Shown piece after piece: positions 15,141 to 15,204 of a stretch of 64,000 nucleotides of DNA. A model generated the notes under the pieces. That model did no database searches. It saw nothing but the letters and a program-made list of their open reading frames with translations, and was not told the DNA's origin. Within the stretch, counting starts at the first letter, position 1. Each line of letters opens with the position of its first letter. Made by a program: the position numbers and the translations under genes. Origin of the DNA: Escherichia phage PinkRuby; the sequence record PP925839.1. One strand, written 5' to 3'.

Positions 15141-15170
15141 ATTATACCATACTCATTTTGGAAAGTAAAC
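15141..15170 (-). promoter_or_regulatory. T4-type early promoter
   Basis: gtaaac 15165-15170; -10 TATAAT (complement of attata 15141-15146). Confidence 0.55.
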
Positions 15171-15184
15171 CGGTAAAATGAAAA

Positions 15185-15204
15185 AGGACTCCCGAAGGAG
15201 TCCT
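15185..15204 (-). terminator. tetraloop hairpin terminator downstream of soc
   Basis: AGGACTCC-cgaa-GGAGTCCT; UUCG loop on the transcript. Confidence 0.6.

Follow-up and report, generated by a model that had tools for sequence, protein, structure and literature searches.

Terminator–early promoter modules of the T4-like Escherichia phage PinkRuby and possible pairing of early promoters with their own leaders

The window analysed here, a stretch of 64,000 nucleotides (nt) from Escherichia phage PinkRuby (PP925839.1), covers the initial 64 kb of the genome of a T4-like phage (Tequatrovirus), and the element in question is a short block that stands in two of its intergenic regions: copy A separates soc from mrh.2, and copy B separates rI.-1 from mobD.5. 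A preliminary description, made from the letters alone, had taken the phage to be T4-like, which is borne out by its Tequatrovirus identity and by a gene order colinear with T4 from rIIA to e. Nearly all genes are on the minus strand, so the plus-strand sequences of that description are to be read as reverse complements. Both repeat loci match hundreds of Tequatrovirus genomes at 95-99.7% identity, and for the window the identity to Tequatrovirus genomes is 98-99.7%. Read along the minus strand, copy A consists of the soc stop codon, the hairpin AAGGACUCC-UUCG-GGAGUCCUU, the tract UUUCAUUUUACCG, GTTTAC, 18 nt ending in TGG, TATAAT, GAGGAG and the ATG of mrh.2. Copy B consists of the rI.-1 stop codon, AGUCUCC-UUCG-GGAGACU, UUUUUCAUUUUACCG, GTTTAC, 18 nt, TACTAT, a Shine–Dalgarno sequence (SD) and the ATG of mobD.5. 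The features of the two copies are:

15184-15205, minus strand: predicted terminator hairpin of module A, AAGGACUCC-UUCG-GGAGUCCUU, 9 bp, just past the soc stop codon (-15.1 kcal/mol, z-score -5.4), with covariation over four genera.
15171-15183, minus strand: U-tract of terminator A, UUUCAUUUUACCG, doubling as the A/T-rich region upstream of the promoter and holding a patch that reads AAAT in T4 and TACC in the window.
15141-15170, minus strand: predicted early promoter of module A, GTTTAC-N18(..TGG)-TATAAT, leading into mrh.2 (SD 15121-15126, ATG 15114); promoter and terminator are annotated on the homologous SA21RB stretch.
55519-55536, minus strand: predicted terminator hairpin of module B, AGUCUCC-UUCG-GGAGACU, after rI.-1 (MobD.6), 7 bp (-10.8 kcal/mol, z-score -5.1); annotated as a terminator in T4 U76612 and in SA21RB.
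55474-55518, minus strand: U-tract and predicted early promoter of module B, GTTTAC-N18-TACTAT, leading into mobD.5 (ATG 55445); 'early promoter 57.9' in T4 U76612.

The window holds the 26-mer GGAAAGTAAACCGGTAAAATGAAAAA at exactly two places, 15160-15185 and 55493-55518 (none expected, 100 shuffles), and no third match was found there when up to three mismatches were allowed. By self-BLAST, the A/B pair (41 nt, 95%) is surpassed in strength by only one other dispersed repeat of the window. The earlier claim that the block is followed at both loci by a hairpin with a CGAA loop is correct, with coordinates 1-2 nt off; on the transcribed strand the loop is a UUCG tetraloop with a closing C-G pair. 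That the block is a promoter–terminator module is likewise upheld by the minus-strand anatomy, by folding and by annotation in T4 and its relatives. None of 200 shuffles was as stable as either hairpin, the hairpins end 13-15 nt ahead of the -35 element, and simple terminator and promoter scans detect both elements in A and B. As expected of an intrinsic terminator, a G+C-rich stem is followed by a U-tract in each copy: 9 bp (5 G-C) and then UUUUUCAUUUU in A, 7 bp (4 G-C) and then UUUUUUCAUUU in B. The trinucleotide TGG precedes the -10 element in both promoters.

We are confident that A and B are composites of the type called PeSL, in which an intrinsic terminator directly adjoins a T4 early promoter, and that each separates one transcription unit from the next. 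Our own observations comprise the sequence anatomy, the gene context, conservation in >500 phage genomes and stem covariation; that transcription terminates and initiates at these sites is suggested by published work and by the way T4 and related phages are annotated. Copy B is annotated in SA21RB as a T4 early promoter and a rho-independent terminator, and the T4 GenBank record U76612 gives it the label "early promoter 57.9" along with a terminator and signals for -10 and -35. Several relatives have a terminator and a promoter annotated at copy A. A short query derived from the module matched 544 phage records at 948 places in all, with one or two places per record among the records listed. 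The first PeSLs to be described were those of RB49/phi1, where activity of promoter and terminator was measured (PMC2839356, Arbiol et al. 2010), and composites with the promoter consensus TTTACW-N17-TAYWAT were then reported for the T4/PST pair (PMC4122927, Comeau et al. 2014); T4 early promoters have been described as UP/-35/TGn/-10 promoters (PMC2988021, Hinton 2010). Copies A and B agree with the PeSL description in promoter sequence (GTTTAC-N18-TATAAT and GTTTAC-N18-TACTAT), in having a stable hairpin just upstream of the promoter and in spanning the interval between the upstream stop codon and the downstream SD and ATG. Dispersal fits as well: there are about 20 early promoters in the window, three with an upstream cUUCGg terminator and at least eight with an embedded hairpin. 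The module type is thus already known, being annotated in T4 itself and published as PeSL.

In the proposed mechanism, polymerase arriving from the upstream gene (soc for A, rI.-1 for B) would meet a very stable cUUCGg hairpin and a run of U residues and would terminate, leaving the hairpin as a protective structure at the 3' end of the upstream mRNA. Some 13-15 nt further on, it would be followed by an early promoter with an A/T-rich upstream region that overlaps the U-tract, a -35 element GTTTAC, a spacer of 18 nt with TGG at its end and a -10 element TATAAT or TACTAT, from which unmodified host sigma-70 polymerase would initiate a new transcript for mrh.2 (A) or mobD.5 (B). Crossovers between phage genomes may also make use of the short homologies within such cassettes. 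Several points weigh against this interpretation. Termination may be partial, given a stem of no more than 7 bp in copy B and the interruptions in both U-tracts (UUUUUCAUUUU). Rfam, searched at gathering thresholds, gave no match in the window, although the lack of a family for these elements is expected for terminators. A literature search found no usable data set of T4 transcript-end mapping or cappable-seq.

The preliminary description had also argued that pairing in the stems is under selection. In an ungapped alignment anchored on the loop, two pairs are altered on both sides in a compensatory manner between the A and B stems (a G-C replaced by A-U, an A-U by U-A), and two basal pairs are lost. 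Two paralogous hairpins prove little, and orthologues of copy A were therefore collected from annotated phage genomes. The stem is AAGGACUCC/GGAGUCCUU in T4 and several Tequatrovirus species, AAGGAAUCC/GGAUUCCUU in RB69, ATK47 and JLBYU31, AAGGAACC/GGUUCCUU in Dhakavirus phages and AGGGACUC/GAGUCCCU in one Gaprivervirus. In the resulting alignment of nine sequences (orthologues and paralogues from the genera Tequatro-, Mosig-, Dhaka- and Gaprivervirus), neither the UUCG loop nor the C-G pair that closes it varies in any of the nine, 93.8% of cells are paired and five of the nine pairs show double changes. None of 500 shuffles reached the observed covariation score, and shifting the partner by one column abolishes the signal. 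The hairpin is conserved in related phages and structurally constrained, so the argument for selection on pairing stands. That description had proposed a motif search and an alignment of all copies, and had held that lack of conservation in related phages would speak against it; both were run, and the module is conserved there. A pattern scan of IMG/VR with CTTCGG-N12-40-GGTTTACTTTCC was set aside, as its 25 loci were mostly chance matches in unrelated G+C-rich contigs, and in the approximately nine that were T4-like the stem is invariant. In the soc–mrh.2 spacer of UPEC07 (L037, Gaprivervirus), the orthologous soc terminator is followed by TTTGCTTTTAA-N-TATAAT, a MotA-box middle promoter; judging from this sequence, the promoter class appears to have been swapped (middle versus the T4-like GTTTAC early type) at a conserved terminator.

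A third copy of the arrangement lies after nrdC.11 and has the same build as A and B:

51877-51956, minus strand: third terminator–promoter module, AGGGAGCC-UUCG-GGCUCCCU, U7, with an early promoter 30 nt downstream.

No other tetraloop of the window comes near UUCG in frequency, and among UUCG hairpins with stems of at least 6 bp there are 10 on the sense strand versus none on the antisense strand. Hairpins of T4 mRNA with the cUUCGg tetraloop were reportedly described by Tuerk et al. in 1988. The sense-strand cUUCGg hairpins of the window match that original discovery in T4 mRNA (PMC4371310). Other copies in the window have no U-tract and stand directly before middle promoters or inside genes. 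Those at 4328-4345, 34938-34957 and 36208-36227 are directly followed by GCTTTA-N12-TAnnnT, a MotA-type middle promoter, and not by an early promoter; this combination of cUUCGg hairpin and middle promoter is the arrangement described as 'PmSL' for phage nt-1.

Likeness between distant promoters is not confined to A and B. The near-identity of two early promoters that had been pointed out at 2429 and 47219 is confirmed by self-comparison, with 30 of 32 positions identical over 2429-2460 and 47219-47250:

2429-2458, minus strand: rIIA.1 early promoter, near-identical paralogue of 47219, with a 7-bp spacer hairpin ACCACA-AGGA-UGUGGU; the same pair is found in T4 at 2435 and 50950.
47219-47248, minus strand: nrdC.4 early promoter, paralogue of 2429 by self-comparison.

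Further promoter pairs are paralogous over 40-60 nt (25371/51866, 19643/54654 and 25369/50162). What sets A and B apart is the segment from -45 to -37, where they have in common the unusual CATTTTACCG; the common form is CACAAAGTT, and the other early promoters of the window have CACAAAGTT or AAAAAGTT ahead of GTTTAC. The patch from -45 to -38 of copy A is polymorphic, and its version in the window lineage is identical to that of copy B. This TACC patch may reflect gene conversion from B to A, or arrival with an alternative soc allele.

How the repeat came about can be approached from two sides. The A/B likeness could in principle be a chance product of two strong promoters converging on the T4 early consensus, since GTTTAC and an A/T-rich upstream region are the consensus and are common to the roughly 20 promoters of the window. 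We consider this improbable in the extreme: the other promoters do not carry CATTTTACCG, no third match to the 26-mer exists at three mismatches and none is expected, and the similarity runs on through the hairpin (41 nt, 95%) and is retained in T4. The suggestion that such modules serve as substrates for cassette shuffling deserves more weight. In this proposal they would act chiefly as terminator/promoter linkers for homologous cassette exchange between co-infecting T4-like phages, a role compatible with the transcriptional one. Published work on PeSL shuffling demonstrated mini-circles in RB49/phi1 and placed crossovers between the -10 element and the SD (PMC2839356), and the mechanism was extended to T4/PST (PMC4122927). 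Copy A lies exactly at a mosaic junction. A high-identity high-scoring segment pair to T4 ends at 15171, and the sliding-identity profile stays at approximately 97% to T4 and NR1 up to 15198 on the mrh side and falls to 55-68% from 15199 on, so a divergent soc allele starts exactly at hairpin A; an assessment by permissive BLAST that copy A is at no breakpoint was overturned by this profile. The soc allele itself (15212-15448) has approximately 55-68% DNA identity to T4 soc, and the flanking mrh genes approximately 97%. The whole copy A locus is covered in only 128 of 640 records, and BLAST alignments of other lineages end at the hairpin edges, a patchy coverage that fits a soc-allele junction at hairpin A. 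The polymorphic patch of copy A, with a window version equal to that of copy B, is a further point in favour. Exchange is also indicated beside the third module, which is bordered by a cassette flanked by two early promoters:

51590-51866, minus strand: 276-nt cassette absent from T4, comprising a leader, an open reading frame (ORF) of 66 amino acids (aa) at 51638-51838 and a second early promoter (51608-51637), with junctions in a CTATCAA leader repeat between -10 and SD.

Crossovers were mapped at this same position, between -10 and SD, by Arbiol et al. (PMC2839356), and the 51608 promoter and its leader recur in RB69 ahead of a different gene (sp). On the other side, copy B is at no junction, 499 of 501 records being colinear at 95-99%. 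Window–T4 boundaries fall in promoter/terminator elements in four of 54 major cases versus 1.56 expected (P=0.07), and P=0.25 when all 88 boundaries are taken. A and B are direct repeats 40 kb apart, and a crossover between them within one genome would be expected to delete essential replication genes. Intergenic regions are, moreover, where junctions survive selection under any mechanism. Of the three modules, copy A and the third one are at junctions, as PeSLs tend to be, and copy B is not. The shuffling idea is partly supported, by copy A, with its drop from about 97% to about 60%, and by the cassette with the 66-aa ORF, but not by copy B, and the overall enrichment of boundaries is marginal (P=0.07); as an account of what the modules are chiefly for, we find it credible but stop somewhat short of favoring it. 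The ideas of structural selection and of shuffling are both sound, but both are already published.

The preliminary description had further drawn attention to short dyads around -10 elements, which do exist and exceed chance: CCACA-TCCT-TGTGG at 2435 and 47225, and TTATACCA-tcct-TGGTATAA at 49594-49613. A dyad given at 19645-19668 is also real, but its extent was understated, being in fact a 13-14-bp stem at 19638-19673. The hairpins and promoters concerned are:

49586-49619, minus strand: MotA-dependent middle promoter PnrdC.7, GCTTTA box, 12 nt, TATAAT, with an 8-bp dyad at 49594-49613; identical to T4.
19638-19673, minus strand: 13-14-bp hairpin whose loop holds the dmd early promoter's -10 element (TATAGT); where it differs from T4, pairing is retained via G.U.
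54649-54684, minus strand: 14-bp hairpin around the -10 element of the mobD.2 early promoter, found by folding.
51598-51627, minus strand: 12-bp hairpin around the -10 element of the early promoter at 51608; in RB69, sp is preceded by a homologous promoter and leader.
7814-7854, minus strand: motB.2 early promoter, with a spacer (UUCCUCGG...) that pairs with leader and SD (..CUGAGGA); covaries in Mosigvirus and Dhakavirus.
12998-13032, minus strand: modB promoter/leader hairpin, in which the -10 region and the next bases pair with SD and AUG, by folding.
50151-50193, minus strand: nrdC.8 early promoter, spacer paired with SD, by folding.
59647-59693, minus strand: regB early promoter, spacer (UUUUCCUCUU) paired with SD (AAGAGGAGAA), by folding.
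63086-63130, minus strand: early promoter of the gene at 63081, spacer (UCUCCUAG..) paired with SD (..UUGGAGGGA), by folding.

These dyads, and the near-identical promoters, could be DNA sites for a dimeric phage or host regulator, e.g. a factor that shuts early transcription off, or they could act as RNA. The regulator gains some appeal from the overlap of the dyads with -10 elements, where a repressor would act, and from the fact that shut-off of T4 early promoters is not fully understood (PMC3014915). We nevertheless judge it very unlikely, and the earlier suggestion of regulator binding sites is not sustained. A dyad-symmetric operator should have a common recognition sequence and symmetry on both DNA strands, and neither is found: the arms differ in sequence, length and register from promoter to promoter, and pairing relies on G.U, so that C.A mismatches arise on the other strand and its folding is poorer by 2-11 kcal/mol. 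Nor are the arms conserved; they covary with the leader of the gene concerned. The dyad at 49594, finally, is part of a MotA-dependent promoter that has been mapped and that has its MotA box upstream of the dyad. Indeed, this site has the expected MotA middle-promoter form ((a/t)(a/t)TGCTT(t/c)A near -30 and 11-13 nt to TAnnnT), with cGCTTTA, 12 nt and TATAAT; its T4 orthologue predicts a transcription start (+1) at 53325-53326, and the mapped start of PnrdC.7 in T4 is 53325 (PMC2988021 Table 1). MotA/AsiA, which had been named among the proteins for footprinting, are thus relevant to the 49594 site only and not to the early promoters, which use unmodified sigma-70 polymerase. A related structure is a 17-bp hairpin at 31590-31627, just before the SD of gene 45.2, which holds a whole middle promoter with the MotA box in its 5' arm and TATAAT in its 3' arm; it corresponds to T4 P45.2 (start 33257), and RB69 has a different hairpin at the same place.

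The other possibility is that the dyads are hairpins of the sense-strand RNA, formed in read-through transcripts only. In about 40% of early promoters, the spacer 3' of the -35 element would pair with the gene's own leader or SD, so that read-through RNA would be poorly translated, or protected from RegB at GGAG, and RNA from the gene's own promoter, which does not include the 5' arm, would be open. The 10-17-bp dyad hairpins are specific to sense-strand RNA: all nine are more stable on that strand, with 22 G.U pairs on the sense strand versus one on the antisense strand. This strand asymmetry, together with the leader covariation, argues that they act as RNA in read-through transcripts and not as DNA operators. 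The known hairpin of gene e (lysozyme) at 63636-63665, used as a positive control, has the same strand signature; it carries the late promoter TATAAATA in its loop and the SD (GGAGG) in its 3' arm. The spacer immediately 3' of the -35 element (UUCCUC or UCUCC) forms the 5' arm at motB.2, modB, nrdC.8, regB and the gene at 63081, with the SD of the same gene as the 3' arm. When 54-nt windows around every early promoter were folded and compared with the genomic background, eight of 20 promoters in the window and nine of 27 in T4 fell in the lowest 1% of folding energy. The computed probability that the SD is unpaired is 0.00-0.08 in read-through RNA versus 0.34-0.89 in the gene's own transcript for seven genes, and the mean gain in SD accessibility is 0.32 versus 0.16 in genes without an early promoter (p=0.02 for the window, 0.007 for T4). 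Matched promoter and leader halves fold at -9.1 kcal/mol versus -4.3 for chimeras, values as low being reached in none of 5000 permutations for either the window or T4, in 18 of 5000 for RB69 and in 49 of 5000 for WG01. The hairpins of motB.2, modB and nrdC.8 persist with different sequences in Mosigvirus and Dhakavirus, and secondary structure is known to shield GGAG from RegB (PMC3014915).

Not all hairpins conform. The SD or AUG lies in the 3' arm at 7814-7854, 12998-13032, 50151-50193, 59647-59693 and 63086-63130, but the hairpins at 19638, 51598 and 54649, all strong, end 2-6 nt short of the SD and leave it uncovered, and in modules A and B there is a weak pairing of CUUUCC with GGAGAG (-11 to -13 kcal/mol, 4th-10th percentile). 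The authors of the PeSL studies, moreover, interpret such stem-loops as terminators or attenuators. On balance, the RNA reading of the dyads is attractive, though we hesitate to call it probable, and we offer translation from own-promoter transcripts only as a conjecture. A broader formulation, which we put forward only tentatively and with some doubt, is that about 40% of early promoters are RNA switches in which the spacer serves as an anti-SD, the gene being translated or exposed to RegB only from its own transcript, and that this arrangement is kept by covariation in Tequatrovirus, Mosigvirus and Dhakavirus and travels with the shuffled PeSL cassette. If so, each shuffled cassette would be insulated translationally as well as transcriptionally, adding a translational layer to the insulation of mobile cassettes. 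If confirmed, the pairing would explain how densely packed early genes are expressed individually on long read-through transcripts, and could explain how some GGAG sites escape RegB. The own-leader pairing would then matter more than the module itself, which as such has little import, being a rediscovery from raw sequence of T4 terminator/early-promoter composites. It does provide a clean worked example, with one module exactly at the soc-allele junction and another bordering the cassette with the 66-aa ORF.

Several other features of the window were noted. Nearly all of the homing-endonuclease insertions that T4 has in this region are missing from the window. Relative to T4, the window has no mobA/gene 60 split of the topoisomerase gene, no segF (two small ORFs stand in its place) and no dam; segA and beta-gt (replaced), mobB, mobC, the I-TevII intron in nrdD, mobD (replaced) and ipII/ipIII are absent as well. 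The window positions of these features are 2806-2858, 15488-15858, 16416-16437, 22617-23564, 36148-36178, 40641-40661, 41937-41940, 52972-53935 and 63085-63092. A perfect 49-nt direct repeat at 17838-17886 and 18196-18244 consists of a duplicated C-terminal end of gp61.2 (..SIDDQIFNAFMNKG) and the next start codon. Between its copies lies a 118-aa ORF (17842-18198) that is a short gp61.2 paralogue and that T4 does not have; the repeat was considered as a promoter-mediated cassette and rejected, as it is a duplicated gene end from the gp61.2 paralogue. The gene start ATGAAAACATATAAAGAATTTATT (MKTYKEFI) occurs three times, at 17816-17842, 62297-62334 and 62632-62668, which suggests a small paralogous gene family or repeated 5' gene ends. 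Perfect palindromes are found at 29157-29178 (22 nt, AGATTGGACAGCTGTCCAATCT) and 4737-4756 (20 nt, TGACTTCTTCGAAGAAGTCA), apparently within coding regions.

Comparison with known systems places the modules among the PeSLs. Like these, A and B are intergenic and combine a stem-loop terminator or attenuator, an A/T-rich region, an early promoter, an SD and an ATG, with copies dispersed in early, hyperplastic regions. PeSL stem-loops lie upstream of the promoter, in its spacer or over the -10 element, and are tied to indels and cassette swaps with crossovers between -10 and SD. The stems of A and B are cUUCGg-looped, unlike the polyG/polyC stems of RB49/phi1, which is nothing essential; copy B also differs in lying off any polymorphic junction in the genomes compared. 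The promoters have the hallmarks of T4 early promoters, namely a -35 element GTTTAC, 17-18-nt spacing, a TGn extended -10, a TAnnnT -10 element and an A/T-rich upstream element, and copy B is the orthologue of an annotated T4 promoter; the difference lies at -45 to -37, where A and B carry CATTTTACCG instead of the common CACAAAGTT. The middle promoter at 49586 does not differ from T4 PnrdC.7, its 8-bp dyad falling in the spacer and -10 region. Like the cUUCGg hairpins of T4 mRNA, those of the modules have a UUCG loop closed by C-G, and, like most others in the window, the module copies are intergenic; what distinguishes the module hairpins is a U-tract, with which they are predicted to act as intrinsic terminators.

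The closest parallel for the spacer–SD pairing is a small group of hairpins in T4, where a review lists SD-sequestering hairpins for e, soc, 49 and I-TevI only (PMC3014915). In these cases the promoter lies inside the hairpin, upstream transcripts with both arms hide the SD and transcripts from the internal promoter do not contain the 5' arm. The known cases, however, have late promoters (TATAAATA), whereas the internal promoters here are early (GTTTAC...TAnnnT) and the 5' arm is the promoter spacer itself. We therefore do not class the PinkRuby hairpins with those of e, soc, 49 and I-TevI, but suggest that they may follow the same logic.

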